32,000 nt of DNA from Candidatus Lokiarchaeum ossiferum (GCA_025839675.1 CP104013.1:4440001-4472000); one strand, 5' to 3'. Counted from the stretch's first letter, positions 10,290 to 29,578 are shown. A program made the numbers and translations. The notes: generated by a model from the sequence alone, not told the origin.

Positions 10290-10327
10290 GTCGTTTTTTT
10301 TTCTTATTTCATATTTTAACCGTGTTT

Positions 10328-11404: not shown

Positions 11405-11592
11405 GGTTGCGCGCCCTATCTTACATACTTATCTTTACTATTTAACATTCTTTAGTTAATACATTGAAATGTTCATTTTCGGATGAACTAACTCTCGTTT
11501 ATTAACATAGTAGTGGTTTGAAGGATAAGGAAAAAAAGGATAACAATTCATAATAGAATTCAAGAAAAAAGACATGAAAATGATTATTTTAT

Positions 11593-11802
11593 TTATTCGA
11601 AGTGCTTATCTTTACAATCGGGACAAATTGAATGAGAAAAGCGCCCAAGAAAGTTATTTAAAGATAAGTTATTTGGAGTGATCCAATTTTCTTCGATTGA
11701 AATTGAATTACACCACGCACATTGCACTAAGTAGGCTCTGTGGTCTAATTTGTAGGGAAAACATGGAGAATTTGTGGATTTTGAGGACATTATTACTTTC
11801 AC
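11593..11802 (-). CDS. Small zinc-ribbon protein (CxxC...HxICPxC)
   Basis: 69 aa. CAWC plus HSICPDC gives four potential metal ligands. It is a stand-alone gene flanked by long intergenic regions. Confidence 0.45.
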   Translation of the reverse strand: MKVIMSSKSTNSPCFPYKLDHRAYLVQCAWCNSISIEENWITPNNLSLNNFLGRFSHSICPDCKDKHFE

Positions 11803-12133
11803 TGCTTATATTTGATTCAAGTATTTAACAATCACTTTTTTTTCTGATTTTTTACTCAGATGGTGTTACTTCTTTGAATGGAAAAAAAGATATGGTCTCA
11901 TGGGAAACCAATTTTTAGCAATTTCTTGTTCGAACTAATGAAATCATTTTCGTAATCTCAATAATTTCTAAAATTTATAAATTAATTTAAAGTCGGACGG
12001 AAAAAAAATCGCTTTTGTATCAAAATTTCATGAACATTCTTGATAGAAAAAAGCTCCCGACAGAAAAATGCGAAAGAAATATAAAATGAATTAAAATTTT
12101 TAACAAATCTATGGTTAGAGTACTTGATACGTA

Positions 12134-13039
12134 ATGGCAAATTTAACAGATGTCAAAGGACCGGTTTTAATTACAGGGGCAAGTTCTGGGATCGGATTCA
12201 GAACAACCTTGCATCTCGCAAGTATGGGGGTTGTTGTCTATGCTGGTGTGAGAAAAGAAGCTGACAAATCGCTTTTTAAAGACACAGAAAATGTCATACC
12301 GGTCATTGTTGATATAACCAAGATAGATCAAATAGAAGATTTGGTGAAATTTATCGAGAAACAAAAGCGCGGATTATTCGGGCTGATAAATAATGCGGGT
12401 GTTGGTGAATTAGGATCGATTACTGAATATTCCGATAAATTGATCCAACATCACTTTGATGTAAATGTTTTTGGACATATGCGCATCACACGAACCCTTC
12501 TTCCCTTCTTGAAAGAATCTCAAGGTAGAATTGTGATTACTGGGTCAATGAGTGGGATTTTGACCTCAAAGATTATGGGGTTGTATTCTATGTCAAAGCA
12601 TGCTATTGAAGCCTTTTCCAATGTTTTACGTGGTGAATTGGCTGAATTTAACATTCAAGTATCCTTAATCCAACCGGGCAATTTTAGATCCAAGGTATTG
12701 ACTAGTATGGTATCGAGATATAAAGAAGGGATTCATAAGGAAGAGCAAAATTCATTTATCCATAGTAAACGTATGGAAAAATTAGCTGAAATGGGTGAAC
12801 AAGATGCGGATCCTGTTCAAGTTGCGAAAGTGATGGAACAAGCTTTATTTTCCGACCAACCAAATGCAAGATATTTTGTAGGGAATAAACAGGAAGCTCA
12901 TGTTATGATTGAAGGCATTATGACTAAAATGTTGCAAATCAATCAAAATGAGCATCAAATGACTCGTGATGAATTGGTTGAACTATTAGATCAGCTTATT
13001 AAAGATTATAATGAACCGAAACCCTATCGGTATATCTGA
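12134..13039 (+). CDS. Short-chain dehydrogenase/reductase (SDR)
   Basis: 301 aa. TGASSGIG cofactor motif, NNAG, and the catalytic YSMSKHA (YxxxK) preceded by a Ser (GSMSG). Confidence 0.9.
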   Translation: MANLTDVKGPVLITGASSGIGFRTTLHLASMGVVVYAGVRKEADKSLFKDTENVIPVIVDITKIDQIEDLVKFIEKQKRGLFGLINNAGVGELGSITEYSDKLIQHHFDVNVFGHMRITRTLLPFLKESQGRIVITGSMSGILTSKIMGLYSMSKHAIEAFSNVLRGELAEFNIQVSLIQPGNFRSKVLTSMVSRYKEGIHKEEQNSFIHSKRMEKLAEMGEQDADPVQVAKVMEQALFSDQPNARYFVGNKQEAHVMIEGIMTKMLQINQNEHQMTRDELVELLDQLIKDYNEPKPYRYI

Positions 13040-13087
13040 TGATTCTTAAATATCAAACAAGTTTTTTCTTTTTCTGTAATTTTTTCA

Positions 13088-13642
13088 TTATCTTTCTGGG
13101 ATATACAGTCTTATTTCTGAAGAAGGCTTCGACCAATGAAAACGGTGATCATAATGCTCTAGATGGTCGATAATAAGTGGAGGTGGTGGGAGTAAAGGCT
13201 CTGGCTCAATATTTTTCTGTCTTTTCTGTTGTGTGATGTGGTCAAGGGTTTCAGGAAGGTGAATAAGGGCTCCCCGATGAATATGTTTTTGACAATGTAA
13301 AGATGGGATTTGAAGACCTACCATAGAAGCAATTTGAAATTTGAGATCTGAAACTTCAACACATGCCATATATTTCAAGATTTTCTGTTGAGTCTCATCA
13401 AATTGATGATAGAGGATTCCCCACTTTTCCCATCCCTTCGTTTTCTTTCGATTCGGAATCTGCTGCAATCGGTGGTTGAATGTTTGCCATAATTGACGAC
13501 TCGCTTGGTATTCAGGAAAAATCTTATGTTCAAAAACAATTTCCATACCGATGACCATCATGGAGGGTAGCTGGATCATATTCATTGGAGGGCTTTTTTG
13601 ATCGATAAAAGAAGAAAGTTTTTGCTGTTTCATACCTTGCAA
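13088..13642 (-). CDS. GyrI-like / AraC-effector-binding-like small-molecule binding domain protein (tentative)
   Basis: 184 aa. The pattern MMVIGMEI...LWQTFNHRLQQIP...WGILY...YMACVEVSD...IPSLHCQKHIHRG resembles GyrI-like domains. The track start is TTG at 13642. An ATG three codons downstream (13633) is an equally good start. Confidence 0.4.
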   Translation of the reverse strand: MQGMKQQKLSSFIDQKSPPMNMIQLPSMMVIGMEIVFEHKIFPEYQASRQLWQTFNHRLQQIPNRKKTKGWEKWGILYHQFDETQQKILKYMACVEVSDLKFQIASMVGLQIPSLHCQKHIHRGALIHLPETLDHITQQKRQKNIEPEPLLPPPPLIIDHLEHYDHRFHWSKPSSEIRLYIPER

Positions 13643-13701
13643 AGGGAAACTTGGGATTTAATCCCAATTGTTAAGTGACTAAGCCATGGAGAAATCTTGA
13701 A

Positions 13702-14679
13702 TTATGACTCAAATTCCATTAAATTTGCCCTTTTTAGTACGTGTAATGCATCTAATGTAACCCATGGGTTCATTTTCCGTTTTGCAACCCCTCCCCAATG
13801 CACGGGAGAATGATTTCGGCCTTCTTTTCCTAAATAGTATCTTATCTCGGCTGGAAAGCCTCCATCAGGTAACCGTTTTGAAACTAAAATATCTAAAGCT
13901 GGTTGACAGCGAGGATCTTTGAGTTTTTCTCCTTCTCCCAGAATTTTTAACGCATTTAAAATATTATAATGCCAGTACGATGGATAGGATAGTTGTATCC
14001 ATTTAGGATGAATTGGGAGTTGAGTATGTTGGCTCACATAAAGTTTTCGTTTGAGGAAGACTTCACTGGCGCGTTCGATGGTTTGAGCTAAGGAAGGGGA
14101 AGGGTGAGTGTGATGATAATGGATCAAAGCTCGATAGGGGATAAGGCTTTCATTATACGATGAGTGGCACGCTTTGGGATGTTTATCACAATTCCATCCT
14201 CCATCCTCCCATTGGTAATCTTGCAAACGTTGGATTAATTGTGCACATCTCCCATCATCCAAACCCAATTTGGTGAGTGCAAAAATTGCATTTCCCTCGA
14301 TAGAAGCACAAAACCGCCGCCGTCCTTCCAAAATGGGTGTTCGTTTCCAGTGGTGATCACTCAGTAACCATTCTAATTCCGCATCACGACTGGGAATCAG
14401 CGTTTTATCCTGAGGCGGATACTCGAGATCTGCCAAGATCGCCATAATCCAATGAGCACCATGCCATTTATGATAAACATCATAAGGCAAAGATGAATTT
14501 CCTTGAGGTAGATCTTTGAACAACTGTTGGACTATGGGCGACTTTTGCTTTAAATCTCTACAAATTTGCTTAACTTCTACAGTATCTAATTCATGATCCA
14601 AAAGGGTTCGATAAGTTTTCAACCGGATCAAAGGTTCTTTGGATTGCAATAATTGCGTGATGATAGGTAAAGTGGTCAT
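13702..14679 (-). CDS. Alpha/alpha-toroid (prenyltransferase/terpene-cyclase-like QW-repeat) protein, function unknown
   Basis: 325 aa. Two QW-like motifs are present: LIQRLQDYQWEDGGWN and ILVSKRLPDGGFP. I see no catalytic DxDD/DDxxD. Confidence 0.45.
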   Translation of the reverse strand: MTTLPIITQLLQSKEPLIRLKTYRTLLDHELDTVEVKQICRDLKQKSPIVQQLFKDLPQGNSSLPYDVYHKWHGAHWIMAILADLEYPPQDKTLIPSRDAELEWLLSDHHWKRTPILEGRRRFCASIEGNAIFALTKLGLDDGRCAQLIQRLQDYQWEDGGWNCDKHPKACHSSYNESLIPYRALIHYHHTHPSPSLAQTIERASEVFLKRKLYVSQHTQLPIHPKWIQLSYPSYWHYNILNALKILGEGEKLKDPRCQPALDILVSKRLPDGGFPAEIRYYLGKEGRNHSPVHWGGVAKRKMNPWVTLDALHVLKRANLMEFES

Positions 14680-14703
14680 TCTTTCGTCCTTTGTAAATCG
14701 GGA

Positions 14704-15483
14704 TTAAGAGTTTAAAATGGTTCGGATTTTTTCTCGGGAGAGTTGATCTGCTTGGAAAACTGGATCGGGTTGACGATGATCTGAGGTAGATTTCAAAGTG
14801 AGTCTGATGGCAAGTTCAATATCTACACGATATCCTTCGCTTATAAAAATGGGTTTTCGTTCATTAGCAGCACATATGGCATATCCAAGAATTTTATTCT
14901 CTTCTCTGTTCGGATCAAGTTCATTTTCATAAACGGGTGTTTTTTCTCCTCTTTGTCGAGTCAACTCTTTCCATGAGGATGTGCCTACAAATGGTGTTTT
15001 CGCAGCACCGAAGGTTGGAATGTCGAATACTACTCCTAATTGGATCGCTTCCCCAAATTGTAATGGATGGATAAGTCCATGACCATCACAAATAATTATC
15101 TGGGGTTTTCGGTGTAATTTAAGGATGGCTTGTGCAATCGGTAAACATTCCCGAAATCCTAAAAAACCGGGAATATAGGGAAAAAGTAAATTTTCTTGAT
15201 GGAATGTGGCTTCTATCAGTTTTCCTTCTTGAAGATCCCAAAGCGTGACACACGCTATTCCCCAAGTCGGATGTTTGTCCGGAGGAAATGAAATATCTAC
15301 TCCTGCAACATATCGTAACGCATCCAAATCTTCAATCTGTAATTTCTTTTGATTCGCATTTTGATAGAAAATTCGCCATTTATTTTGAAGGGATAGTGCT
15401 TCTTTCTCGGTTAAATCGGTTCGCATTAGATCATGCTTTAGAATATGATGTTTTTGTGAACTGTCACACCAACTTGTTTCCAT
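14704..15483 (-). CDS. nfi: Endonuclease V (deoxyinosine 3' endonuclease)
   Basis: 259 aa. Conserved motifs: YVAGVDISF (catalytic Asp), PYIPGFLGFRE, IICDGHGLIHP, GVVFDIPTFGAAK. The N-terminus is about 25 aa longer than typical. Met20 (15426) is an alternative start and would leave more room for the divergent promoters. Confidence 0.9.
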   Translation of the reverse strand: METSWCDSSQKHHILKHDLMRTDLTEKEALSLQNKWRIFYQNANQKKLQIEDLDALRYVAGVDISFPPDKHPTWGIACVTLWDLQEGKLIEATFHQENLLFPYIPGFLGFRECLPIAQAILKLHRKPQIIICDGHGLIHPLQFGEAIQLGVVFDIPTFGAAKTPFVGTSSWKELTRQRGEKTPVYENELDPNREENKILGYAICAANERKPIFISEGYRVDIELAIRLTLKSTSDHRQPDPVFQADQLSREKIRTILNS

Positions 15484-15522
15484 TGGTTTAACTAAGATGT
15501 TTCTCTATTTAATGTACTTGAA

Positions 15523-16845
15523 ATGTCAGAGAGTTCCACAATAACTTCCATGAGTAAAAAGGATCAACATGCATTGGAATCGATATCTTTTGTTCAAAAT
15601 TTTTCCAATGGGTTAATCGCTCCCTATATATCTATGATTGCATTAACTTTAGGTGCTACGGGGATTCATCTCGCTTGGATTTCGAGTATCTCAAATCTCT
15701 TTGTCTATTTCTTCAATCCCCTCTTTGGACGCTTGTCAGATAAAACACGGAAGCGCAAATCTTTCATTATTTTCTCCAATTTAACATGGTTCATTCCCTA
15801 TATTTTGATCCTTTGGGCTAAAACCCCTTTAGCCATTATTGTTTGTGTGGGTTGTGTATATATTTTATTGAGTATCGGTGTATCCCCTTGGAATGCATTT
15901 CAGAATGAACTTTTTCCTGCCAAAAAACGGGCCGAATTATCCAGTAAATTATTTTGGGTGTCAGCTATTGCCACTATGATCGCTACTTTTATCACAGGGT
16001 TTTTTTTGACTTTGGTGTTTGGAGAGATTCCATTCCAACAAATAATCTATTTACCTGTGATCATAAGTTTTCTCATGGCTAGTTTTGCCAGTTTCCGCCT
16101 TTCAAGGGTGGAACAACCCAATAAAAGATCAAATTCTTTGACTTTTGATGCATCTCGTTTGACTAATAGTGAAAAAAATGGGCAATTGAGCGAAAATAAA
16201 ACAGCTTTACAAGGGATACAATCAATATGGAATAATAAACCCTTTCGGAAATATGCCATTTTGAGTACTTTCTATTCGTTATTCCAATCCATGTTTTGGC
16301 CAATGTTCAGTTATAAACAAGTCTCGATCTTAAATGCATCCAACTTAGAGATTGCTCTTCTGGCCATTTCTATGAATTTTGCCATTTTTTTAACTGTGCG
16401 GCCGGGGGCTCGCTTATCAGATAGGTTCGGGCGGAGATACTTCATTTGGTTAAGTCGGATTACTCCGGCGTTCTTTGTATTCTTTTATATTCTTGCCACG
16501 GAAGTGTGGCATTTAGTTTTGATTCATATTGTAGTCAATGGGATCTTTAATCTTTGGGATCCGAGTAATCGGGCTTATTTGATGGATATCATTCCTGAAG
16601 ATGAAGGTGGTACTTATTATGGAGTCTTTAATTTGTTTACTGGAGTGGCATGCTTTTTTGGAGCTTTACTGGGAGGATATATTTTTGATAGTGCTAATGC
16701 ACTATATTCTACCACGACTGCATTCGCGATTGCTGTCGGGATCAGTTTAATTGGGCGTTTTTGTCTTAGTTGGGGTTTTTTAACTATTAAGGATGTTAAA
16801 ACGTTTCCGGATTCCTTTAAAAAAGTGTTAAAAAGAAGACATTAG
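15523..16845 (+). CDS. MFS-superfamily transporter
   Basis: 440 aa with about 12 TM helices in two halves joined by a central hydrophilic loop. The loop 2-3 motif GRLSDKTRKRK and the loop 8-9 counterpart ARLSDRFGRR are typical of MFS. Confidence 0.85.
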   Translation: MSESSTITSMSKKDQHALESISFVQNFSNGLIAPYISMIALTLGATGIHLAWISSISNLFVYFFNPLFGRLSDKTRKRKSFIIFSNLTWFIPYILILWAKTPLAIIVCVGCVYILLSIGVSPWNAFQNELFPAKKRAELSSKLFWVSAIATMIATFITGFFLTLVFGEIPFQQIIYLPVIISFLMASFASFRLSRVEQPNKRSNSLTFDASRLTNSEKNGQLSENKTALQGIQSIWNNKPFRKYAILSTFYSLFQSMFWPMFSYKQVSILNASNLEIALLAISMNFAIFLTVRPGARLSDRFGRRYFIWLSRITPAFFVFFYILATEVWHLVLIHIVVNGIFNLWDPSNRAYLMDIIPEDEGGTYYGVFNLFTGVACFFGALLGGYIFDSANALYSTTTAFAIAVGISLIGRFCLSWGFLTIKDVKTFPDSFKKVLKRRH

Positions 16846-16993
16846 TGTCGATGATAGATTTGTATCCTATCTTTCGAATTTTTTTTGGGGATTTAAATAA
16901 AAAAAAGGGAAAGTGGGTGATTCTTGGACTCCTGATGAGAAATTCACTACTGGTGATCTTTTAGACGCCGATTATCCCTCTTTTCCCTCTTTT

Positions 16994-17482
16994 CTATAGT
17001 GAATGGTAAATTTGTTTGATTTTTGCTAAAACTTTTTTATCATATCTTTTTCTTTGTTCCCAATTATGGAAACACTTATAAAAAATATTCTTTGAAAGGA
17101 GATCTGCTCTTACTAAACCGAGAAGAAAACTCCATAAATAATCACAATTTATTTGATGAGCTTGGCATTGAAGAATCAAATCTCTATCATTTGAAATTAT
17201 TACAGATAGATCCCTATGTCCAGTTATGAATAATTCTTGATCTGCTTGATCTAAATGGTGGAGTAAATATTGATTAACATATTTTTGGCGTTCTTCTTCA
17301 GATATTTCTACTGTAAAATCAATTTGTATTAAGGAATTTAGTTGATAGTGGTGGTATTCTTTGAGTAATTCTGCCGTCACTCCTATTCTAAATGCTTCAA
17401 GATTTTGCTCAAAATGAATCTTTTCTTCTTTCGTCAATCTATTGATTTCAAGAAGCGCACAAGTATCTAAAAATAGAAGCAT
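16994..17482 (-). CDS. PIN-domain (DUF3368/VapC-like) toxin
   Basis: 162 aa. N-terminal LLFLDTCALLE carries the first acidic residue of a PIN active site, with later acidic positions in IISNDRDLIL. It lies 2 nt downstream of the antitoxin-like gene. Confidence 0.65.
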   Translation of the reverse strand: MLLFLDTCALLEINRLTKEEKIHFEQNLEAFRIGVTAELLKEYHHYQLNSLIQIDFTVEISEEERQKYVNQYLLHHLDQADQELFITGHRDLSVIISNDRDLILQCQAHQINCDYLWSFLLGLVRADLLSKNIFYKCFHNWEQRKRYDKKVLAKIKQIYHSL

Positions 17483-17484
17483 TA

Positions 17485-17817
17485 TTAGTCCCTATGTTTG
17501 AGTAATTTTGAAAGATCAAAATTCAAGGCAAAATTTTCTTCTCTCGCTAATAAATTATCTGGAATGATTTCTATAGCATCTCTTTGAGCCCATTCTAAAA
17601 GAAATTTCTCATATGATAACCCAGACAATTTCCACGCTTTTTTAAATCCTATTTCTCCTTCCTTTAATCGTTGAAATGCTAATTCAATTCTTTTTGCTTG
17701 AATTTCTTTCAGTAAACTGCGTTTAGCAATCTCAGATAATGACATACCCTTGCTTTTAGCGACTTCTCGGATAATTTCCATATCCTCGGGATCAATTCGA
17801 AAATTAATTTGACTCAC
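17485..17817 (-). CDS. Antitoxin: ribbon-helix-helix N-terminus fused to a UPF0175-like HTH domain
   Basis: 110 aa. INFRIDPEDMEIIREVAKSKGMSLSEIAKRSL is RHH/CopG-like. AFQRLKEGEIGFKKAWKLSGLSYEKFLLEWAQRD is UPF0175-like. The stop is 2 nt from the PIN gene start. Confidence 0.6.
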   Translation of the reverse strand: MSQINFRIDPEDMEIIREVAKSKGMSLSEIAKRSLLKEIQAKRIELAFQRLKEGEIGFKKAWKLSGLSYEKFLLEWAQRDAIEIIPDNLLAREENFALNFDLSKLLKHRD

Positions 17818-18192
17818 GATAGAAAAAATAGCATCGTATCTTAATAAATCTGTGTATAAAAAATATTACCAATATTTTCTCTATCAAAATTTGGTTTTTT
17901 CTGAAATTTTAGAGGAAACTTAATTTTATTGAACAAATTCTGGTTTATTGGGATTATATTCTCTAGATCACCACTTTTTTTACTTTTTGATTTCATCTTG
18001 AAGTAAGAACCTATTCCACCATTTATGATTACTTAGTTATTACCTAATTTTAAAGATTTAATTTAAAAAGATCTCGCTACGGTATTAAGAATTTCTCCTT
18101 AATATTCATCTTCCTATGCGTTGCTGAGAGCGGTCGATGATCTGATTTAAGTCTTTTCCTTAATCTGAAAGGAATTGTGCCACTTCCATAAC

Positions 18193-18201
18193 TTTTTAAT
18201 A
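18193..18201 (+). promoter_or_regulatory. TATA-box-like element (TTTTTAATA) upstream of tRNA-Asp
   Basis: It lies about 43 nt upstream of the mature tRNA 5' end. This is compatible with an archaeal promoter plus a short RNase P-processed leader. Confidence 0.3.
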
Positions 18202-18243
18202 GGATGGCACACTGATAGAATTACTACTAAACGTAGCATCCGT

Positions 18244-18349
18244 GCCCCGATAGTGTAGTGGTCAGCATGAAGGACTGTCACTCCTTCGACTCGGATTCGA
18301 AAGTTGGCTGAATTTCTCATCCAATACGAAAATTCCGGTCGGGGCGCCA
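18244..18349 (+). tRNA. tRNA-Asp (anticodon GUC), intron-containing, with genomically encoded CCA
   Basis: Hand-folded cloverleaf. Acceptor GCCCCGA/TCGGGGC. D-arm GTGT-AGTGGTCA-GCAT. Anticodon arm AAGGA-CTGTCAC-TCCTT with GTC at 18277-18279, U33 and A37. Variable loop is 4 nt. T-stem TCGGA/TCCGG. Discriminator G is followed by CCA at 18347-18349. The T-loop is 38 nt rather than 7 because of an intron. Confidence 0.9.
18302..18332 (+). other. 31-nt tRNA intron at position 59/60 (T-loop) with a bulge-helix-bulge motif
   Basis: The T-stem (18291-95/18334-38) continues into a 4-bp helix, TTCG (18296-99) with CGAA (18327-30). That helix is flanked by 3-nt bulges AAA (18300-02) and AAT (18331-33), then an inner helix GTTGG/CCAAT (18303-07/18321-25) with one extra unpaired A at 18326. 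Cutting after the second bulge nucleotide on each strand yields the canonical T-loop TTCGAAT. Confidence 0.75.
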
Positions 18350-18362
18350 TTTTTCTTCTTCT
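18350..18362 (+). terminator. T-rich tract (TTTTTCTTCTTCT) immediately after the tRNA
   Basis: The oligo-T run starts directly after the encoded CCA. Archaeal RNA polymerase terminates at oligo-T tracts. Confidence 0.4.
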
Positions 18363-18417
18363 TATTGAATATCTAATTTTCTGCGACAATGTTTTAATTT
18401 TATTTCAAGAATTTCAC

Positions 18418-18449
18418 AAAAAAAATTTTGAATTGGTCATATTATGACC
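18418..18449 (-). terminator. Hairpin overlapping the stop codon of the 1098-aa gene, followed by a U-tract
   Basis: Reverse-strand RNA reads TGGTCAT-AAT-ATGACCA (7-bp perfect stem, 3-nt loop, containing the TAA stop), then ATTCAAAATTTTTTTG. My coordinates are good to about +/-1 nt. Confidence 0.35.
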
Positions 18450-21400
18450 ATTCAGATGGATGAAACCATTCAAATTGATTAATTCTGTTAGTTAAGAGAT
18501 AATACATCATATCTCCAAAAATATCTAATGAAACAGGTTTGCCATATAAATCGTTTAAAAATTGTTTATTAGATTCATCTTTTAAGTAATCAACCAGGTA
18601 TTTATTACTTGATTTCTCACAAACAGAGCCATTCCAACGGGATTTTTCTTTGTTATATAGAAGAGTTTTTGAACTCAGATTTCTCCTAACCAAATTTTCC
18701 CAAGATCGTATCATCATTAGATAAAAGAGTCGCATATCGATAACAATGGATTTTGGAATCCTTTTCATTTTTTTATCAGCATCTAATAAATATTTTTCAA
18801 AATTCCATTCAAATCGTTCCACATTATTTGTTTTTGGATTAACTCCATTACATATTTTGAGCCAATTGTATACTTGCCTCTTCTGCTCTAGATTCAATCC
18901 ATTTTCAATTTGAACATTTATTTCCATTTTTGATCGAGTTTCAATTACAACAGGCTGGTTTATTTGGGGGTTCCACCATGATAAAATAGATCCAAGATTT
19001 TGATCAATAAATGAATTCAGCTCTTGATCATAAACATCTAAATTTTGAATAACTTCAATGTAATCAACATCATTTTTCAATCGCTGAATCTGATTAAACA
19101 ATCTATATATTTCAGCGGTCATTAATGGATTTAATCGACCTTGAAATTTGGAATTAGGGACTGATATTCCAAAGTTTTCAAAGTTATCACATAATGCATA
19201 ATCTTGCCAAGCATCTTGAGATTTTACAATGGAGATTTTCGGTTGACATGCAAAGAAATTGCCCCAAGCAGATTGGATTTTTTCCATATGATATTCTCTT
19301 CCCGATGACGTTCCATCTCCTTCATCAAGATATTCTACCCAAATAAGGTATTTTCCTTGGGCGGATGCTCCAAGTTGCACTAATTCATCTGGTTTTATGA
19401 AAGTGCCCTGATTGCATCGATAAACTTTGAAATTTGGAGTTTGACAAATGGATTGCAACTTTCCTCTACCAAGGACAACATAATATTTATCACTACTTTT
19501 TGTAGGGTTGATCTTTCCTTGTTCATCCACTTTCAATTTGGAGATCATTCCAATTAATTCATGGTTATTTTGAAAATCTAACAATCTTTTGAATTTTTGG
19601 CCAGATGGCGTAAAAGTTGAAGAAATTTGTTTTTTGACAAAAATTGAATTGTCTTTTCCTTGATCTTTGAATTTTGCTGCAATTAATTCAATTGAATTTC
19701 CTATTTCATATTGATAAGAAAAAGCAGTAGGATCTTTGAAGAGATTCATGCGATAATATGATGGGGAATTTCCTCCAAAAAGGTGGATTGGTAGCTTTCT
19801 TTGTGTAAAGAGATTTTTTGAATGCTTGTAAATGAAATCATTGAAATGATCCACATTTTCAAATAACACACAATATCGATCCATCCCAAGCATCCTCAAG
19901 TAAAATTCTTGTAGGTACAAATTATATTCTGATTGTAGTTCAGTCCAAGTTCTCGAATATTTCTTACTTGCTCTTTCTGTTGATCCAGCATATATTTGTA
20001 CATTTTTATTCCCAGTCAGAAAATCAATTGCTGCAAATGAAGCTTTGTATATTTTTCTTTGAACTGATGAGTTGAGAGAAGTTGCCGTGATTTGATCACC
20101 GATCACATTTTTTCCTTCTTGGCATTCTATATTGTATATTCCTTGGAGTTTTTCTAGCCAATTAACTATAGATTCTTGCTTATTGGGATCCCGATTTTTG
20201 AATAATTTCAACCTATTAGATTTTTTACCTAAGAAATCATCTACTGACTCATAGGGAGAATTTTTCAATTTTGCTTTTAAAATGAATTTAGTGAAATCTA
20301 TTTTCTCCATAACTAACCAATTTGGAAAATCTTGGGAAATAGTGTGTTGCTGGAACCAGTTGTAAATGTTGCCTTTAAAAGATGGATATGAACGGTTATC
20401 GGTGATCTGTGAATTGTTTAACACTAATTTGTTCAATAAACTAACAAACAATTCAAATCCTTTACTGTGAACAACTTTCCTTTCTCCTAATGAATTTGTA
20501 AACACTAAATCTGAAAAACCGGCTGAGTGGACAATACCGCCTAAATATCGACAATATTTAAAAACAATCCATAAATTATCTCCCTTTATTCGTTCAGAGG
20601 GAGTTCCTACGATTTTTACAAAATTAAAGTGCTTCATAGAAACATTTTGATCCATTTTTTCAATTAAGTCATGAAATCTCATTGGAACATTGTGTCGATT
20701 ATACATTCTAGATGCATGCCCACCTGAGACCGTTTCAGCATTTCCACAAAGGCGTCCAGTTATACCAATCATTATTAATTCGGTCAAAGCTAAATTTGCT
20801 GCAACTATTTTTCTATATAGTTTATCCAATGAAGAATGATTTGAATCTCGATTTGTGTTTTCAAAGGCTATTTGAGGTATATATTCTTTATTTATTGCTT
20901 GAATATCTGAATTATTTGATCCACGGGATGGAAAGAAGTATTGTATTTTATCCAATTCTAGTAAAATATGAAGAGGTAAAATTAACTGATCATTGAATCG
21001 AATTATGAATTGTGGTGTGATGAAATCCATATTCTTAACTCTGATACCCGGGGTAACTCGCAAATCATTAAACGCTTTCACTGTTGAAATATCATATTTA
21101 ATCAATTGTGAAAGCAATTTTGGATACTTACCTCCAAATAATTCAAGATGTTTTTCATAAATTTGAGTTATATTGGATTCAAGTAACTTTCCTCGTTGAA
21201 TTTCGAGAATTAATTGTTCACAAATATGATTTGAATCCTCGCTCTCCATAAATAAAGTTTCTTCTAAGTGATCTTTGAGTGCTTTTTTTTTTTTAAATTT
21301 TATTTCCTTAGAAATTTTATTGCTTACATAGAAGCCAATTCCTGTGAAAGCAAATCCTCCGATTATTTTGAAATGTGGGTTTGAAATTCCACGAAGTTTG

Positions 21401-21738
21401 ATGCTTTTTTCTTTAATATTAGTTGGTATCTTCATTATTACTTTGTCCTTAATTTTTTTCACATTCTTTTTAACCCTAATAGGGATTTGATTTGTTAGAT
21501 TTGTCTCAATTATGAGTTTTATTTCATTTTCGCAGTTTTTAATAAACTTAGAAATGGCAATTTTTCCTACTTTATCTTCTTTTGAAAAACGATTGGAGAA
21601 AAAATCAATATCGTGTTCTTTGTCAGTTTTAGTTAAAGGATTAAGCCAGTTAATGACAAATTTTCTTGCATTTTCACCTAAATTATTTATATTAACTTTT
21701 TGAAAGGCTTTAGTTATTTTTTTTCTTGTTATTTTCAT
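18442..21738 (-). CDS. Large orphan protein (1098 aa), function unknown
   Basis: A 3.3-kb uninterrupted ORF in about 30% GC DNA cannot be chance. Lys-rich N-terminal about 120 aa, then a Gly/Phe-rich hydrophobic segment (KIIGGFAFTGIGFYV, residues 124-138). The remaining about 950 aa show no P-loop, CxxC pairs, DEAD/DExH, HNH, DxDGD, YxDD or methyltransferase motif that I can recognise. It has its own AT-rich upstream region (262 nt) and a terminator-like hairpin. Confidence 0.8.
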   Translation of the reverse strand: MKITRKKITKAFQKVNINNLGENARKFVINWLNPLTKTDKEHDIDFFSNRFSKEDKVGKIAISKFIKNCENEIKLIIETNLTNQIPIRVKKNVKKIKDKVIMKIPTNIKEKSIKLRGISNPHFKIIGGFAFTGIGFYVSNKISKEIKFKKKKALKDHLEETLFMESEDSNHICEQLILEIQRGKLLESNITQIYEKHLELFGGKYPKLLSQLIKYDISTVKAFNDLRVTPGIRVKNMDFITPQFIIRFNDQLILPLHILLELDKIQYFFPSRGSNNSDIQAINKEYIPQIAFENTNRDSNHSSLDKLYRKIVAANLALTELIMIGITGRLCGNAETVSGGHASRMYNRHNVPMRFHDLIEKMDQNVSMKHFNFVKIVGTPSERIKGDNLWIVFKYCRYLGGIVHSAGFSDLVFTNSLGERKVVHSKGFELFVSLLNKLVLNNSQITDNRSYPSFKGNIYNWFQQHTISQDFPNWLVMEKIDFTKFILKAKLKNSPYESVDDFLGKKSNRLKLFKNRDPNKQESIVNWLEKLQGIYNIECQEGKNVIGDQITATSLNSSVQRKIYKASFAAIDFLTGNKNVQIYAGSTERASKKYSRTWTELQSEYNLYLQEFYLRMLGMDRYCVLFENVDHFNDFIYKHSKNLFTQRKLPIHLFGGNSPSYYRMNLFKDPTAFSYQYEIGNSIELIAAKFKDQGKDNSIFVKKQISSTFTPSGQKFKRLLDFQNNHELIGMISKLKVDEQGKINPTKSSDKYYVVLGRGKLQSICQTPNFKVYRCNQGTFIKPDELVQLGASAQGKYLIWVEYLDEGDGTSSGREYHMEKIQSAWGNFFACQPKISIVKSQDAWQDYALCDNFENFGISVPNSKFQGRLNPLMTAEIYRLFNQIQRLKNDVDYIEVIQNLDVYDQELNSFIDQNLGSILSWWNPQINQPVVIETRSKMEINVQIENGLNLEQKRQVYNWLKICNGVNPKTNNVERFEWNFEKYLLDADKKMKRIPKSIVIDMRLFYLMMIRSWENLVRRNLSSKTLLYNKEKSRWNGSVCEKSSNKYLVDYLKDESNKQFLNDLYGKPVSLDIFGDMMYYLLTNRINQFEWFHPSEWS

Positions 21739-21759
21739 TTAAGATCATTCCATATCGAG

Positions 21760-21774
21760 TTTTTAAATTTTAAA
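21760..21774 (-). promoter_or_regulatory. TATA-like element (reverse strand TTTAAAATTTAAAAA) upstream of the 1098-aa gene
   Basis: It lies 22-36 nt upstream of the ATG at 21738. It sits in generally AT-rich DNA, so specificity is low. Confidence 0.25.
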
Positions 21775-22000
21775 CTCTAACTATGGATTTCACTTAGTTA
21801 ATACCTTTAAATAGAAAATACTAAAAATGATTTTTGATTGAGTGAAAGAACATAGGGAAAAAAAAGGAAAACTTATTCTTAAAATCTTTAATAAACCATT
21901 GTCTAAGGTTATTTTTTATAGTAAGGCACTTTGCTCATACATTAAATTAAGAAAACCAATTCAAAGGGCAGATTAAGTAAAAAATATAAAAAACGGATGA

Positions 22001-24148
22001 TTAATGCTTCTTCATTCTTTGAATTTTTTTAGCTAAATCCACAAGTTCGAAGGGTTTAACCATGACTCCCAAATCGTAGTGATCTTTAGGAGGTATGTCT
22101 TGTTCAGAATAACCCGTGATAAATAAAATTGGTTGCTTTGGATTGATTTTTTTAATCTCTCGATATATATCAATACCATTCATTCCAGGAAGATTTATAT
22201 CGAGAATCACTAAATCGAATTGCTGGGGGAAGGATTTATATAATTTCAATCCTTTTAGGCCTAAACCTTCGGAGTACATTGTAGCACGACATTTTCTTAA
22301 GAATTTTTGGATGGAATTCTTTACCATCTCTTCATCTTCGATTAATAGAAGTGTAAGATCGTGAAAATCAAAGAACAAAGGTTCATCTAAAGTAATAGCT
22401 TGAGATTGGTTTAATTGTGAATGAAATTGACGATTTAGTATTGGAAATGTGAGTGTGAAGGTCGTTCCTTGATTTTCTTTGCTCGTTACTGAAATATTTC
22501 CATCCATCGATTCCATTGAGCTATATACAATGGTAAGCCCTAATCCTGCCCCTTGCCTTGTTTTTTCTTTTGTACTAAAGAATGGATCGAAGATTTTGTC
22601 TTGAATTTCTAGTGGGATACCCATGCCCGTATCCGAAACCTGAATTTCTAAATCGAATTGGGAATCATAAATTTTTGAAGATGGGATATGTAGTTGGTTG
22701 GTTGTTATCCGTTCTGGCGTAGATGGTGTTTTTTTAGGAGCCAATCGACTAGTTACTTGAATTAATCCAGAATTATTTCCAATAGCATCACGAGCATTTA
22801 TCCATAGATTTAGAAAAATCTGATTAAATCGGGAATGATCACCTAACAGATAGATCTCTTCTTCAACAAGTTGAGTTTCCATTGTAATTCTGCGATCTAT
22901 CATTTTTCGGAATCCTTTGAGCAAATCGTCAATCGCAATGTTCGCGTTAATTAGTTTTAGTTCGACAGATGGAGATCTGGAGAATTGGGTGATCTGATTG
23001 ATAATTTTACCTGAATTTTTTATTAGGGATTGAATCTCTTGTAGATCCTCATCGATTTCAAGCAAAGTATCTTGTCTAGATTTCACCAATCCTTCCTTAA
23101 GATCTTTTAAATTCATATCGATTAAAGATACATTTCCTTGAATACCTGCCAAGAGATTATTAAAATCATGGGCCATACCTCCTGCAAGAGTTCCTAAACT
23201 TTCCATTTTTTGTTGCAAGTGCAATTTTTGCATGAGTTCTGCCTTTTCTATAGATGATATGTGAAGAAGGTTGTTTCGATTTATTAGAGATTGTACTAAT
23301 ATCGCCACGACAGCAGCAAGGGTGAATCCTAAAATTAGCGTTGAGCTATTATTCCAAATTGATAATTCTGCAATTAATTGAGCTAATGGGCGTAAAGCAA
23401 TGAGTATTTCAAATGAATCTAAAATGTTTAGTTCTTTGGAAACTGCATAAGGATCACCTTGGGTAAAATTTTCTCCTTGTTGGTAGATTGGTTGGTTGTT
23501 AAAACTAATACTAACGGAATATTGATCAATTCCCACAAAGCCATATTCTGGACGAAGGATTTCCCCACATAAAACACTGAGTTCGAAGACTCCATTTAAG
23601 TATCCTGTTAATGTTGAATTTACTATAAGAGGAATTATTGTTATAAATCCATATCCGCCCTGGTACAAAGTAAAAACGCCCATTGTCCCCATTTTTCCGG
23701 TTTCTTGCGCATCTTTAAATGCGATATTTAAATCACCATTAGCGATATAGATTATGGATTTATTTAAGGCTCCAATATTGTCTTCATATGGATAAATCCA
23801 CCGGATCGTTCCATTAACATCTATCCAATTGATGGCTCTAAATCCAAGTGTAAAATTAAAATATCGGGGGATTTCTGATTCGAAACGGGTCGGTGAATAA
23901 CAATCTTCAATATTATCAACTTTGATCCACGAATCTCTTAACAACATTAAAATATCGACTCGTTTTTCAATTTCACTGTGAATCGCAACGCTGACTTGAG
24001 AAATCATCACTTCAGTTTTTTCATTCTGATGAAATTTCAAATCGTTTATGTCTCTAATGGTTAAATAACTGGAAAAACTTAAAATTAATCCTATCGAAAT
24101 TACCGAAGCATATTTTATAATTTGCTTTTTAAACACAGAATCAGACAT
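22001..24148 (-). CDS. Hybrid sensor histidine kinase: TM - extracytoplasmic Cache-like sensor domain - TM - HisKA - HATPase_c - C-terminal receiver
   Basis: 715 aa. TM1 is at residues about 13-31 and TM2 (TLILGFTLAAVVAILVQSLI) at about 266-290. H-box LAGGMAHDFNNLL. ATPase N/G boxes NLWINARDA, DTGMGIP, GAGLGLTIV. Receiver: LLLIEDEE...DLVILDINLPGMNG...KP. Confidence 0.9.
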   Translation of the reverse strand: MSDSVFKKQIIKYASVISIGLILSFSSYLTIRDINDLKFHQNEKTEVMISQVSVAIHSEIEKRVDILMLLRDSWIKVDNIEDCYSPTRFESEIPRYFNFTLGFRAINWIDVNGTIRWIYPYEDNIGALNKSIIYIANGDLNIAFKDAQETGKMGTMGVFTLYQGGYGFITIIPLIVNSTLTGYLNGVFELSVLCGEILRPEYGFVGIDQYSVSISFNNQPIYQQGENFTQGDPYAVSKELNILDSFEILIALRPLAQLIAELSIWNNSSTLILGFTLAAVVAILVQSLINRNNLLHISSIEKAELMQKLHLQQKMESLGTLAGGMAHDFNNLLAGIQGNVSLIDMNLKDLKEGLVKSRQDTLLEIDEDLQEIQSLIKNSGKIINQITQFSRSPSVELKLINANIAIDDLLKGFRKMIDRRITMETQLVEEEIYLLGDHSRFNQIFLNLWINARDAIGNNSGLIQVTSRLAPKKTPSTPERITTNQLHIPSSKIYDSQFDLEIQVSDTGMGIPLEIQDKIFDPFFSTKEKTRQGAGLGLTIVYSSMESMDGNISVTSKENQGTTFTLTFPILNRQFHSQLNQSQAITLDEPLFFDFHDLTLLLIEDEEMVKNSIQKFLRKCRATMYSEGLGLKGLKLYKSFPQQFDLVILDINLPGMNGIDIYREIKKINPKQPILFITGYSEQDIPPKDHYDLGVMVKPFELVDLAKKIQRMKKH

Positions 24149-24297
24149 GAATTAATTTCAAACAACAGTTTCCTCCTCAATTATTTTTAGTTTTAGTAAA
24201 TTTTCAAGATTTTACTGGAAATATTTCAAATGTCAGACTATAGTTAAAGAGGGGCTTTGGAAGAATATGATTTTAAAAAAAAGATATGCAAATTAGA

Positions 24298-24582
24298 TTA
24301 TACTTGAGCCATAGTGATCAAAGATTGATTTTTTTGAGCTACTTCTTTCAATTTATTGATTACAGTTCCAATGTTTGTTGTTTTTGTTCTTTCCAATCGT
24401 TTTTTTAATGGATCCTCTATTACTTTTATCCATTCATTGAATTTTAAGGTATCGGGATTTTTATCCCCTAATAAATCTTTTACTGAGAGTTTCAAAAGAG
24501 CCCGGTTCAGAATTTGCGTTTTTTTGGTAAATTCAATTAAAGTATCTGCAAGAATGTTCAGGAATTCACTCACTGTCTCCAT
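24298..24582 (-). CDS. Small all-helical hypothetical protein, translationally coupled to the upstream 7TM gene
   Basis: 94 aa with no recognisable motif. Its start overlaps the 3' end of the 7TM gene by 17 nt (24566-24582). Confidence 0.45.
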   Translation of the reverse strand: METVSEFLNILADTLIEFTKKTQILNRALLKLSVKDLLGDKNPDTLKFNEWIKVIEDPLKKRLERTKTTNIGTVINKLKEVAQKNQSLITMAQV

Positions 24583-25342
24583 CCTCCATAAATTTAGCCA
24601 TCAGTTCTTCCTCGCTTAGTTCTTCTTCTGAAGATAATTCCTCTACTTTGGGACTCCACCCTTGATTTAGTTTTTCTTTGAATGATTTGGGCATGACCCA
24701 AATTAAGAAATTGATCATTAGATAGATCAAACTTGACAGAGAGACACCTAGGAATAGAATTGCCGTCCCAACACTATCATAGACTAAAAATATGAAGAAG
24801 CTAAACGCTCCTGTATAGAAAAGAGCGATTGAAGCCACTAAATAGAGTTTGTACCTCTTTTTGATATAGGGTTCAAGTTCAACCTCTTTTATTTTGCGAT
24901 AAGCCTCACGGGCAGTGTAATATTGCCATGAACTAATAATCATCGTTAATAATCCAAATAAAATATCGGACATGGCCCTAAAGAAGGCCGAACCATTCGA
25001 TTCATAAATACCATAAGATATACAGATCAAAATGGTTGACAAGAGTGCGTAACTTAAGTAATACGTGGTCCATTTTTTATTTCCCTTTAAGAACGTCATG
25101 TAATTAAAAATGAGTAACCACGAAATCCCAACCGCTCTAAAAAAGTGATAGATTAGAGTTCCTCCTCCATTTGCTAAGTAGAAAACGAAACAAATGTCAA
25201 TAAAAATAAGCGATATCGCTAAATGAAGTAAGGAAGTCAATCCCGTTTTCTTAGCCCGATAAATAAGATATCCCGCAATTCCAGCGTATAAGGCCATATT
25301 AAAGCCCATCGAAATATATAAGATCAGTAAATAAAATTCCAT
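24566..25342 (-). CDS. Seven-transmembrane protein with an acidic cytoplasmic tail; function unknown
   Basis: 258 aa. Seven hydrophobic helices by eye, starting at residues about 3, 37, 63, 93, 119, 165 and 193. The tail reads EELSSEEELSEEELMAKFMEDGDSE. There is no retinal-binding Lys context that I recognise. Confidence 0.6.
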   Translation of the reverse strand: MEFYLLILYISMGFNMALYAGIAGYLIYRAKKTGLTSLLHLAISLIFIDICFVFYLANGGGTLIYHFFRAVGISWLLIFNYMTFLKGNKKWTTYYLSYALLSTILICISYGIYESNGSAFFRAMSDILFGLLTMIISSWQYYTAREAYRKIKEVELEPYIKKRYKLYLVASIALFYTGAFSFFIFLVYDSVGTAILFLGVSLSSLIYLMINFLIWVMPKSFKEKLNQGWSPKVEELSSEEELSEEELMAKFMEDGDSE

Positions 25343-25479
25343 AAAAATCTCCTAAAAAATGTAATCGTTTTGATCCTATAAATCTCGGTTTAAATCAGTT
25401 TTCCACATTTTTTGAAAAAAATCCCAATAAAAAATGCTAATTCAGAGCTTTTCATATTCTACCTCAAACTGTACTTCAT

Positions 25480-25974
25480 ATGACTAACCCGATAAAGGAC
25501 AGCCATGTTGGCGCTCTCGCAATTTCTCGCAGATATCGAGATTCTAACCCTGATATTGATCTTAAACTGAGCTCATTTTCTTTAGATTTGGAGGATGCTA
25601 CGAGGGATGAATTATCGGTTTTACAACAGCTTCCAGTTTCGATTGAAATGAAGCTAGCCTTGAAATTATTTCGTCATCCATACATTCTGGATGAAATTTC
25701 TGAAGAAGGTGAATTAATCACTGATGAGATCATGATTTCAGATTTCAGTCAGGAAGTGCAAGGTAAAGCAGTATTAATGCATCATTGGCACTCTATCAAG
25801 GATGCTGTTATATGGGGATCATATCTTGATAGAGGATGTGGGTGGCAATATGAAGAACATTCTTTCTCTGAGGATGTGATGCAGGTGTGTTTGGTGAATA
25901 TAGATGACTCTCCGGAAGAGTGGAATATTTTATCCTTTTGGGTAGTTGAAAAAAGTTCGATTTTGCTTGAATAA
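25480..25974 (+). CDS. Acidic hypothetical protein
   Basis: 164 aa with no recognisable motif. It lies 35 nt upstream of, and co-directional with, the metallophosphoesterase gene. Confidence 0.45.
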   Translation: MTNPIKDSHVGALAISRRYRDSNPDIDLKLSSFSLDLEDATRDELSVLQQLPVSIEMKLALKLFRHPYILDEISEEGELITDEIMISDFSQEVQGKAVLMHHWHSIKDAVIWGSYLDRGCGWQYEEHSFSEDVMQVCLVNIDDSPEEWNILSFWVVEKSSILLE

Positions 25975-26009
25975 TATTTTTTATAATTTTCGACAGAAAG
26001 AGGATACTG

Positions 26010-26741
26010 ATGAAAATTCAAATTGTGAGTGATCTCCATCTAGAATTTGGAGACTATACCTTGCCTCAATGTGAACGGGACTTGTTAATCGTTGCAGGTG
26101 ATGTTCATGTGGGAAAAAAAGCTGTATCGTTTTTAAAAGAGCAACTTGAATGGAGTCCCGTGGTGTATATTTTGGGCAACCATGAATTTTATGAACATGA
26201 TATTGAAACGATAACTACTTTCTATAAGGAACTTCATCTTCCAGGATTACATGTTTTAGATAATTCTGGATTTGAAATGGATTGTGTTCGTTTTTTGGGT
26301 TGCACTTTATGGACTGATGCAAATCAACAAAATGCAATAGATATCCAAAATGTAAAAGGAGGTCTCAATGATTTTCGGTTGATTAAAAATGGTGATCGCA
26401 TATTTACAGTCCAAGATTCTATTAATCGTCATCTTGCAAGTGTGATGTGGTTATCTAATGAATTGAAGAAGCCATACAATGGTAAAACCGTGATAATTAC
26501 TCATCATTTACCCAGTTTGAGATCGATTGATCCAAAATATTCTTTCAGTGCATTGAATTATGCTTTTGCGTCTGATTTGGACAATATAATCGTTGAAAAT
26601 GCTCCCACCTTGTGGATTCATGGGCATACTCATGAGAGTGCGAATTATCAGATTGGAGCGACCAAGGTGATTTGCAATCCAAGGGGATATTACAATGAAA
26701 TTAATTCCAAATTTGATCCTCACTTGATTATCAATTTGTAA
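26010..26741 (+). CDS. Calcineurin-like metallophosphoesterase
   Basis: 243 aa. The full metal-binding motif set is present: VSDLHLE, AGDVH, GNHEF, ITHH, GHTHE. Confidence 0.85.
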   Translation: MKIQIVSDLHLEFGDYTLPQCERDLLIVAGDVHVGKKAVSFLKEQLEWSPVVYILGNHEFYEHDIETITTFYKELHLPGLHVLDNSGFEMDCVRFLGCTLWTDANQQNAIDIQNVKGGLNDFRLIKNGDRIFTVQDSINRHLASVMWLSNELKKPYNGKTVIITHHLPSLRSIDPKYSFSALNYAFASDLDNIIVENAPTLWIHGHTHESANYQIGATKVICNPRGYYNEINSKFDPHLIINL

Positions 26742-26863
26742 CTCTCTATATTTGTTATTTACTATATTTTAATAGATTTTGCGACTTATCTGTCATTTTT
26801 CTTCGGTAACTCTAAAGCATTGAAGTGTCCTATCATATATATTGAATTATTCCTATCCCAAAC

Positions 26864-27937
26864 TTGGTGACTACAATTTCACTTAGAGAAATCGAACTTG
26901 GTATCTGGTTGACAATTGCGATAATCCCCTTTGTAGGGTCTCTTCTAAGTGCCAAAGGATATAAAAAATGGCAAATTAAGCCATATTTACTTCTAATTTT
27001 GATGAATGTTTTTATGAGTTTGTATGGGATGCTGTACTTTGTTGGACGTTTGATCAATAACGTTGAATTTATTATGGCTGGGTTTGTTTGCGTGAATGTT
27101 GTTTTAATGCTCAATACCAGTTTTATTTTATCCATTTATAGTCCTCGTATCCCGAAACTTATATTGATTCAAATTCAAATTATTTTTTTAATCTTATCCA
27201 TTCATGCTACTTTTTCTACCCCACCTCAGCTCTCTGATGAACAAATGCTTTTTCCGATAATGGAAAAAATTGGAATGATAGGGGGGTTATTCATCTTTTT
27301 TATAACTATTATAGGTTATTCGGTTTTTTCTTTAAAGAAAGTGAAAACAAGGAATCTGCCAAAAAAATTAAACATTTTTCCAATTACATTATTAATAGGT
27401 ATTTTTTCGACCTTAATTCTCTATCTTCTCGTAATTTTGATCAACATTCCTCTTTTCTTCGCTTTAATTCCTGGTCTACTTAGTTTTTCTTTAGTTGCTT
27501 TTATCCTACTATTTATTCCCTCGTCATTATTTATAACTCCAATTGAACCTTTACATCTTGCTATAATAAGCCATACTGGAAAAACTCTGTTTAGCAGAAA
27601 TTTTCAGCAAGATATCAAAGATGAAGTGATACATGGTGCCATCTCGGCAATTAATGTGATTTTTCAAAAATATTTAGATCCCAAATCACAACTTAAACAA
27701 CTTCTCTTTGAAAATTTAGTATGTTATGTGGAATTTCGTCCACATTATTTTATCATACTCATTGATCGATATTATTTTAAACAAATGGAATCTACTCTTA
27801 GACAATTTGTGAGTTCTGTTGATCCAATAATTTCCAATCTACCTTCTGACTGGGATGGTGATCTTCTCTCTTTGGGATCAGATATACTTCCCATTTTCGA
27901 GCAAAAATTCAAATTTATTCCCGAAATGCTACGTTAA
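26864..27937 (+). CDS. 7TM membrane protein with a C-terminal longin/roadblock-like alpha/beta domain
   Basis: 357 aa with a TTG start per the track (GTG is the next codon). About 7 TM helices span residues 13-224. The C-terminal domain (residues about 228-325, nt 27545-27838) reads LHLAIISHTGKTLFSRNF-...-VIHGAISAINVIFQKYL-...-LLFENLVCYVEFRPHYFIILIDR-...-MESTLRQFVSSV. This gives the beta-beta-alpha-beta-beta-beta-alpha order of longin / sigma-adaptin-like or roadblock folds. Confidence 0.55.
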   Translation: MVTTISLREIELGIWLTIAIIPFVGSLLSAKGYKKWQIKPYLLLILMNVFMSLYGMLYFVGRLINNVEFIMAGFVCVNVVLMLNTSFILSIYSPRIPKLILIQIQIIFLILSIHATFSTPPQLSDEQMLFPIMEKIGMIGGLFIFFITIIGYSVFSLKKVKTRNLPKKLNIFPITLLIGIFSTLILYLLVILINIPLFFALIPGLLSFSLVAFILLFIPSSLFITPIEPLHLAIISHTGKTLFSRNFQQDIKDEVIHGAISAINVIFQKYLDPKSQLKQLLFENLVCYVEFRPHYFIILIDRYYFKQMESTLRQFVSSVDPIISNLPSDWDGDLLSLGSDILPIFEQKFKFIPEMLR

Positions 27938-27948
27938 ATTTGCTTTAT

Positions 27949-29445: not shown

Positions 29446-29578
29446 AATGATCCATCCTAAGAGTAAGAAAACCTAACAACCTAAGAAATAAAAGTTTTTT
29501 TGGATGAGGGAGTGATATCTTTTCTCCTGGCAACGAAAGACTGATTTATTTGAATTAATAGAAAAAATTAAACGATTT

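Follow-up and report, generated by a model that had tools for sequence, protein, structure and literature searches.

A strain-specific orphan gene in a variable slot beside the tRNA-Asp gene of Candidatus Lokiarchaeum ossiferum B35

What kind of gene is the long open reading frame (ORF) that lies next to a tRNA gene in Candidatus Lokiarchaeum ossiferum B35, and how did it come to be there? Its product of 1098 amino acids (aa) is annotated as a hypothetical protein (NEF87_003819, UYP47534.1). We analyzed it within a stretch of 32,000 nucleotides (nt) of the 6.03-Mb B35 chromosome (GCA_025839675.1, CP104013.1:4440001-4472000; this whole stretch is referred to as the window), in which the ORF occupies positions 18442..21738 on the minus strand, starting with ATG and including the stop codon. 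A previous sequence-only reading of the window had been unable to place the ORF in any family and had suggested that it represents accessory, possibly defence-related, cargo in a variable region. We found that the ORF is a real gene and a B35 strain-specific accessory gene in a hypervariable slot anchored by tRNA-Asp. Sequence comparisons further place it in a tiny, fast-diverging family with three members, which is seen only in Lokiarchaeum.

The reality of the gene, already asserted in the sequence-only reading, is confirmed. The coding frame contains the terminal stop codon only, and the other five frames over the same positions contain 50 to 115 stops each; the chance probability of finding no stop in 1098 codons is ~1e-39 at the local GC content of 31%. 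In addition, an identical protein is encoded in an independent Logan assembly. With a GC content of 0.305 (0.238 at third codon positions), the ORF is located at the AT-rich end of the genes in the window, still inside their range, and its codon usage resembles that of the host.

For a comparison with close relatives, we fetched the syntenic loci of strain B36 (L011) and of a related Lokiarchaeum metagenome-assembled genome (MAG; L009), using EndoV as an anchor; the EndoV of the MAG is 83% identical, and B35 and B36 share an average nucleotide identity (ANI) of 97.2%. In blastn comparisons, window positions 4704-15535, 18088-18301 and 22008-29523 match the B36 locus with 98.7%, 94.4% and 94.9% identity, respectively, and positions 18302-22007 match neither B36 nor the MAG. 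This region includes a B35-specific block (18350..22007, no strand assigned) that corresponds to nothing in either relative and contains the ORF as its sole long reading frame. The left edge of the block is the first base after the CCA of the tRNA gene, and the right edge falls within the final codons of a histidine-kinase gene; blastn homology to both relatives ends earlier, at 18301, at a predicted tRNA intron described below. From the tRNA-Asp 3' end to the histidine-kinase stop codon, the distance is 137 nt in B36 compared to 3.65 kb in B35. Because the flanks are conserved and the gene is missing at the syntenic loci of both relatives, the ORF is accessory and specific to B35. The proposed accessory cargo in a variable region beside a tRNA gene is thereby borne out, and a universal syntenic core gene is contradicted by the absence from so close a strain as B36 and from the MAG.

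The tRNA-Asp slot as a whole (~15536-22007 in B35, 7890-9949 in L011, and 2054-8636 in L009) holds different genes in each genome, with conserved boundaries formed by the histidine kinase on one side and an EndoV-325aa-Cass2-SDR block on the other. In B35, the slot comprises a ribbon-helix-helix (RHH) gene, its 162-aa partner, and the 1098-aa ORF. In the MAG, SnoaL and SBP genes lie across the tRNA, and the side towards the kinase holds MFS_2 and glycosyltransferase genes; in B36, a 291-aa gene takes the place of the MFS transporter. We additionally observed that 84 nt upstream of the tRNA (18004-18087) have no counterpart in B36, the flanking matches being contiguous at L011 8269/8270; this stretch is a further small indel in the hotspot.

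Searches for relatives of the protein gave nothing significant among described families. The best Pfam match had an E-value of 0.25 and 12 bits against a cut-off of 27, the best match in PADLOC-DB 2.0 an E-value of 0.1, and the best PDB sequence (phmmer) one of 0.019; NCBIfam and PHROGs returned no matches. The protein thus remained unplaceable, as had been stated before, and neither the profile nor the PDB sequence searches revealed a housekeeping family. A word-indexed search of 5.8 billion clusters retrieved the ORF protein itself only. Exhaustive phmmer against 1.84 billion representatives identified two relatives, P0002 (E-value 9e-23) and P0003 (E-value 7e-21), and both alignments cover residues ~590-1017 of the query. 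P0002 is a protein of 723 aa from L. ossiferum B36 (XEO76971.1, CP163304). P0003 (475 aa) is encoded on contig NODE_1007 of a Lokiarchaeum MAG (ENA ERZ26802894), which has the same sample and coverage (~9.6x) as a Lokiarchaeum contig syntenic with the window; an in-frame stop codon upstream indicates that P0003 is a complete, stand-alone protein. Neither relative matched Pfam, and in PADLOC-DB P0003 had no match and P0002 an insignificant one (E-value 0.0063, 13.6 bits). No further family members were found in viral or metagenome contigs or in phage and plasmid collections, the latter two searched by tblastn. A collection of genome contigs also gave no further relatives; it apparently lacks L. 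ossiferum and is thus uninformative for that species.

P0002 and P0003 are 26-27% identical to the query, and identities among all three proteins range from 26 to 31% over ~480 aa. The region they have in common is a C-terminal module (C-module; residues 590-1098, window 18445..19971, minus strand), in which the three-sequence comparison revealed at least 60 invariant positions, including Trp, Cys, and Gly, and WW[DN]P, W..CNG.[ND]P.T, and IDMR[ML][FY]Y as the best blocks. A profile of the C-module had no match in the PDB. The sequence preceding the C-module consists of 590 orphan residues in the query, of 290 unrelated residues in P0002, and is missing in P0003. For the N-terminal orphan region of the ORF (residues 1-589, 19972..21738, minus strand), no relative exists among the 1.84 billion representatives. 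B35, B36, and the MAG each carry a different family member, at different loci, and the low identity of the members is found even though two of the host genomes are 97% identical. The 90%-identity cluster of P0002 holds the B36 sequence alone; therefore, B35 apparently lacks a P0002 orthologue. Judged by these comparisons, the ORF is a member of a tiny and rapidly diverging family restricted, as far as seen, to Lokiarchaeum, and nothing described matches this family.

Closer inspection of the protein sequence supports part of what had been read from it earlier. The N-terminus is Lys-rich over the first ~120 aa, and residues 1-100 are basic with 24 Lys and Arg versus 11 Asp and Glu. A Gly/Phe-rich segment at residues 124-138 exists as described, but its interpretation as a membrane hairpin or anchor is not supported: the best mean Kyte-Doolittle hydrophobicity in a 19-residue window is 1.04 there (residues 125-143), below the usual transmembrane cut-off of 1.6. 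The maximum of the whole protein is 1.46, so that no segment over its full length exceeds the cut-off. In agreement with the claimed lack of recognizable catalytic motifs, regular-expression searches of the protein found no Walker A, DEAD/DExH, HExxH, YxDD, GDD, CxxC, HKD, or GxGxG motif. A PD-(D/E)xK nuclease was considered on the basis of the conserved Asp784, E802..D805, and K820, with a Pro in front of Asp784 in two of the sequences; we rejected this candidate because spacing and pattern do not fit and the regular expression had no match. AlphaFold2 modelling of the full protein reached a mean predicted local distance difference test (pLDDT) score of 31.5, and modelling of the C-module one of 32.7, with input alignments of three sequences each. 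A Foldseek search of the PDB with the C-module model, the confidence of which is too low to interpret, gave nothing at an E-value of 0.001 or below and template modelling (TM) scores of at most 0.09; the entries 'serine integrase' and 'colicin' with such TM-scores were rejected as noise.

Information on a possible role comes from the genomic context of the relatives. The gene immediately upstream of P0002 encodes a BrxH/HamB-like DEAD helicase; genes for a TIR protein and the Lamassu proteins LmuB and LmuC lie further upstream. This defence island (L004 1153-9897; B36 CP163304, ~2.43-2.45 Mb) comprises LmuB (649 aa), LmuC (193 aa), DUF4238, a TIR_2/bSEFIR-like protein, and the BrxH/HamB-like helicase. 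The word 'Lamassu' has no occurrence in the main text of the B36 preprint; we also noted aEF1A 2.3 kb downstream. A leucine-rich repeat (LRR) protein directly follows both P0002 (L004 12308-13399) and P0003 (L002 1655-3103), and the two LRR proteins have a C-terminal tail of ~70 aa in common (40% identity, E-value 5e-10). This suggests that a C-module protein and an LRR protein form a conserved two-gene module. The ORF locus itself has no adjacent LRR gene, and an RHH gene lies 0.6 kb away. That the N-terminal region of the ORF represents a fused LRR partner or neighbour was rejected, as a comparison of its first 600 aa with the ORFs around P0002 and P0003 gave no match.

According to a recent preprint (10.64898/2026.02.13.705702), B35 and B36 differ mainly in defence and mobilome genes. 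We propose, with a rough probability of 0.4, that the family plays a role in a conflict system. It may belong to the conflict gene pool, either acting in defence against viruses and mobile elements or being carried by such elements. Target specificity would then come from the variable N-terminal region or from an LRR partner encoded separately, and the C-module would act as the working core. Compared with the defence cargo suggested previously, the accessory nature of the gene stands, but no defence hidden Markov model was matched, and the link to defence is circumstantial, consisting of the P0002 island, the LRR pairs, and the RHH gene. The recurrence of homologues beside defence genes, which had been proposed as a check, applies to P0002 with its Lamassu/TIR/helicase island and not to P0003.

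Several observations weigh against this proposal. The defence island is a single one and concerns one of the three family members; the P0003 neighbourhood is not defence-like, the ORF is near an RHH gene only, and the remaining genes of the window are ordinary metabolic and regulatory ones. Searches of Pfam, PADLOC, NCBIfam, and PHROGs and by regular expression revealed no signature of defence, of a nuclease or NTPase, or of any other catalytic activity, and the models with their low pLDDT values give no support from a fold. The division into core and specificity parts is a reading of the architecture of three sequences. We found no expression data, and the locus tag and accessions appear nowhere in the literature and supplements searched. 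Hallmarks that would document the arrival of the block were not found either: there is no integrase among the window neighbours or in the block, the 19-nt tRNA 3' end occurs once in the window with up to three mismatches allowed, and local alignments of the mature tRNA to the rest of the window do not exceed shuffled controls. A more specific version of the proposal appears improbable to us as a whole: the C-module would be the effector or core of an Asgard-specific immune system not described so far, which would obtain its specificity from the LRR protein in the case of P0002 and P0003 or from a fused, fast-evolving N-terminal sensor in the ORF, and which would travel from strain to strain as a tRNA-linked cassette whose arrival delivered a new tRNA intron.

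How the block may have arrived is best considered together with the tRNA gene. The tRNA-Asp(GTC) gene (18244-18349, plus strand, CCA encoded) is convergent with the ORF. It was missed in window scans by ARAGORN and by Rfam at the gathering score; in E-value mode, Rfam gave a sub-threshold tRNA match at 18244 with 22.3 bits. Removal of ~29-32 nt from the T-loop is sufficient for ARAGORN to call tRNA-Asp(GTC), which upholds the earlier report of a tRNA gene beside the ORF. The alleles of B36 and the MAG are 75 nt long and intron-less. In its minimum-free-energy fold, the B35 allele has a 4-bp UUCG/CGAA helix between the T-stem and an inner GUUGG/CCAAU helix; an AAA bulge on one strand and an AAU bulge on the other flank the 4-bp helix. 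If each bulge is cut behind its second base, positions 18302-18332 (plus strand) are removed and exactly the 75-nt intron-less allele results. The 31-nt insert is thus a genuine predicted bulge-helix-bulge (BHB) intron of the canonical hBHBh' form at position 59/60 in the T-loop, absent from the B36 and MAG alleles, and it explains why the standard scans miss the gene. As the outgroup lacks the intron, parsimony places its gain in the B35 lineage; this gain looks very recent and contiguous with the B35-specific 3.65-kb block.

Two further annotations concern the same positions. A match to the C/D-box sRNA family sR60 of Rfam at 18268-18324 (minus strand), antisense to tRNA and intron, has 19.5 bits compared to a gathering score of 50 (E-value 0.065) and is probably spurious. 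An 80-aa ORF at 18147-18389 (minus strand), for which the Logan annotation has a 67-aa gene, overlaps tRNA-Asp in antisense and is almost certainly a false gene call arising from the undetected intron-containing tRNA.

At the tRNA side, the first 20 nt after the tRNA are common to B36 and the MAG, and B35 differs from the first base after GCCA onward, which puts the boundary of the block right at the 3' end of the tRNA. The kinase has 715 aa in B35, compared to 720 aa in B36 (L011 5741-7903) and 718 aa in the MAG, with the right breakpoint at 22001-22010 (minus strand). Since this breakpoint lies inside the last kinase codons, the imported block would supply the last residues of the kinase and its stop codon. 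The ancestral spacer is kept at neither end of the block; we therefore consider the event a replacement rather than a clean insertion. Near the block ends (18427-18444 and 21948-21965), we found an inverted repeat of 18 nt that is 83% complementary and contains the perfect 10-nt core TTTGAATTGG; one of its arms overlaps the terminator hairpin of the ORF, so that the repeat may be due to chance, and no target-site duplication was seen. Since the B35-specific sequence runs without interruption from the intron through the tRNA 3' exon and the 3.65-kb block, the block was probably brought by one recombination event with foreign Lokiarchaeum DNA, in which the crossovers would lie in the 5' part of tRNA-Asp and at the end of the histidine-kinase gene. 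Such an exchange fits the near flanks being less similar to B36 (94-95% identity) than regions further away (98.7%). A connection of tRNA intron gain with element integration was proposed by Sugahara et al. 2012 (PMC3293823).

These features also raise the possibility, doubtful on balance, that the ORF is relic cargo. A virus or plasmid would have integrated at the tRNA-Asp 3' end and subsequently lost integrase, attR, and ancestral spacer by deletion, leaving one large element gene with a structural, replication, or anti-defence function and none for the host. A start immediately after the tRNA CCA is the classic boundary of tRNA-targeting archaeal elements, the loss of the 137-nt spacer shows that DNA was replaced, and there is the above precedent for tRNA intron gain with mobile-element integration. 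An orphan N-terminal half is moreover typical for unsampled gene pools of viruses and elements, and the perfect 10-nt inverted repeat lies near both ends of the block, but it overlaps the terminator hairpin and could be coincidental. Against this explanation, the hallmarks of a mobile element are missing, as the window contains no integrase, att repeat, or tRNA fragment. The protein has no match in IMG/VR, the phage and plasmid collections, or PHROGs, and no copy of the tRNA-Asp 3' half or of the intron was found in viral contigs. P0002 (2.43-2.45 Mb) lies outside the B36 provirus (4.36-4.37 Mb), and an intact frame of 1098 codons argues for maintenance by selection.

LRR proteins are very abundant in Lokiarchaeum. 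The ORF might accordingly encode a lineage-specific cellular protein outside of conflict, for example a signalling or scaffold component working with LRR proteins, whose variable presence would reflect the fast gene turnover in Asgard archaea. The LRR partners of both relatives, the histidine kinase upstream of the ORF, an LRR-TPR-kinase at a distance of 11 kb, and the lack of a defence signature in PADLOC are in line with such a function. We nevertheless regard it as unlikely: the ORF is missing in a sister strain with 97% ANI, the members are 26-31% identical and encoded at non-syntenic loci, one of them resides in a defence island, and this turnover is quicker than expected for a component of the cell biology. 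Finally, a non-functional or very young ORF, i.e. a chance or decaying frame, would agree with the 590 N-terminal residues without relatives, the lack of a confident AlphaFold2 structure, and the lack of expression evidence in the literature searched, but it is very improbable in view of the chance estimate of ~1e-39 for 1098 open codons at 31% GC, a C-terminal half conserved in three proteins with at least 60 invariant positions, host-like codon usage, and promoter-like and terminator-like signals of its own. In Asgard genomes, large orphan genes specific to one strain are no rarity.

The transcription signals of the ORF were read from the sequence. An AT-rich upstream spacer of 262 nt (21739..22000, minus strand) contains T-runs after the histidine-kinase stop codon and a TATA-like element, TTTAAAAT, at 21767-21774 (minus strand), 29-36 nt before the ATG of the ORF. 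At the other end (18418..18453, minus strand), a hairpin at 18430-18453 overlaps the stop codon, and AAAA and T8 come next, in this order, at 18418-18429. The hairpin and T8 plausibly represent a candidate archaeal oligo-T terminator. The elements of an own transcription unit described in the sequence-only reading, namely spacer, TATA-like element, and hairpin with T8, are hence present, but a scan for bacterial-type terminators had no match, and the z-score of the hairpin fold is just -1.37.

Among the neighbours, the histidine kinase is located directly upstream of the ORF. The RHH/DUF6290 antitoxin-like gene (17485..17817, minus strand, 110 aa; E-value 1e-7) is specific to B35, being absent from the L011 and L009 syntenic loci, and is separated by 2 nt from its 162-aa partner (16994..17482, minus strand), which is also B35-specific. 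Of the PIN/RHH pair postulated earlier, the RHH part was therefore recovered, but searches of Pfam, PHROGs, PADLOC, and the PDB with the partner did not confirm a PIN domain or give any other match, and its PIN-like acidic pattern was recognized by eye only. The window further encodes an LRR-tetratricopeptide repeat (TPR)-protein kinase of 916 aa (4904-7654, plus strand), which lies 11 kb from the ORF, is positionally conserved in the two relatives B36 and MAG, and shows a eukaryote-like signalling architecture typical for Lokiarchaeum.

L. ossiferum is among the very few cultured Asgard archaea, with B35 and B36 as a tractable pair of strains and, for B36, a virus of the Fylgjaviridae in cultivation. 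As a large gene in which these strains differ and which has no relative outside the genus, the ORF is a testable candidate for new Asgard biology, be it immunity, an LRR-coupled function, or a function of mobile elements. The locus also captures what appears to be a recent tRNA intron gain contiguous with imported DNA, which bears on the origin of archaeal tRNA introns. Even if the gene were inert cargo, a recombination hotspot at tRNA-Asp has been mapped that is possibly useful for genetic tools.

The B35 locus can be compared with known systems at several levels. As in tRNA-targeting archaeal integrative elements of the SSV and pNOB8 types, the tRNA is intact and the strain-specific DNA starts precisely where the tRNA gene ends. 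In contrast to these elements, the B35 block lacks an integrase, an att direct repeat, and a displaced fragment of the tRNA, is 3.65 kb long with one gene, and has replaced the ancestral spacer instead of splitting it. The tRNA disruption in Caldiarchaeum subterraneum (PMC3293823) is similar in that a single tRNA locus varies at the population level and a new BHB intron is found beside a strain-specific insert. The Caldiarchaeum insert, however, carries a recombinase gene, recurs six times in that genome, and has left behind a 5' fragment of the tRNA, whereas the B35 locus has neither a recombinase nor such a fragment, and no second copy is known.

With regard to the protein, the nearest parallel outside the family is offered by defence systems of one or two genes that occur in defence islands and combine a sensor module with an effector module, for example STAND/Avs-type proteins with LRR/TPR sensors or the candidate systems labelled 'PDC' in PADLOC. 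The ORF differs from these systems in having no NTPase (no Walker A), no recognizable effector domain, and no PADLOC model match, and the resemblance is one of context and architecture only: a large strain-specific protein in a variable slot by a tRNA and an antitoxin-like gene, one relative in a Lamassu/TIR/helicase island, and a conserved module combined with a variable N-terminus or an LRR partner. P0002 and P0003 are shorter (723 and 475 aa) than the ORF protein, have an adjacent LRR gene, and do not possess the 590-aa N-terminal extension. What all three have in common is the C-module of ~480 aa in Lokiarchaeum proteins without Pfam domains.

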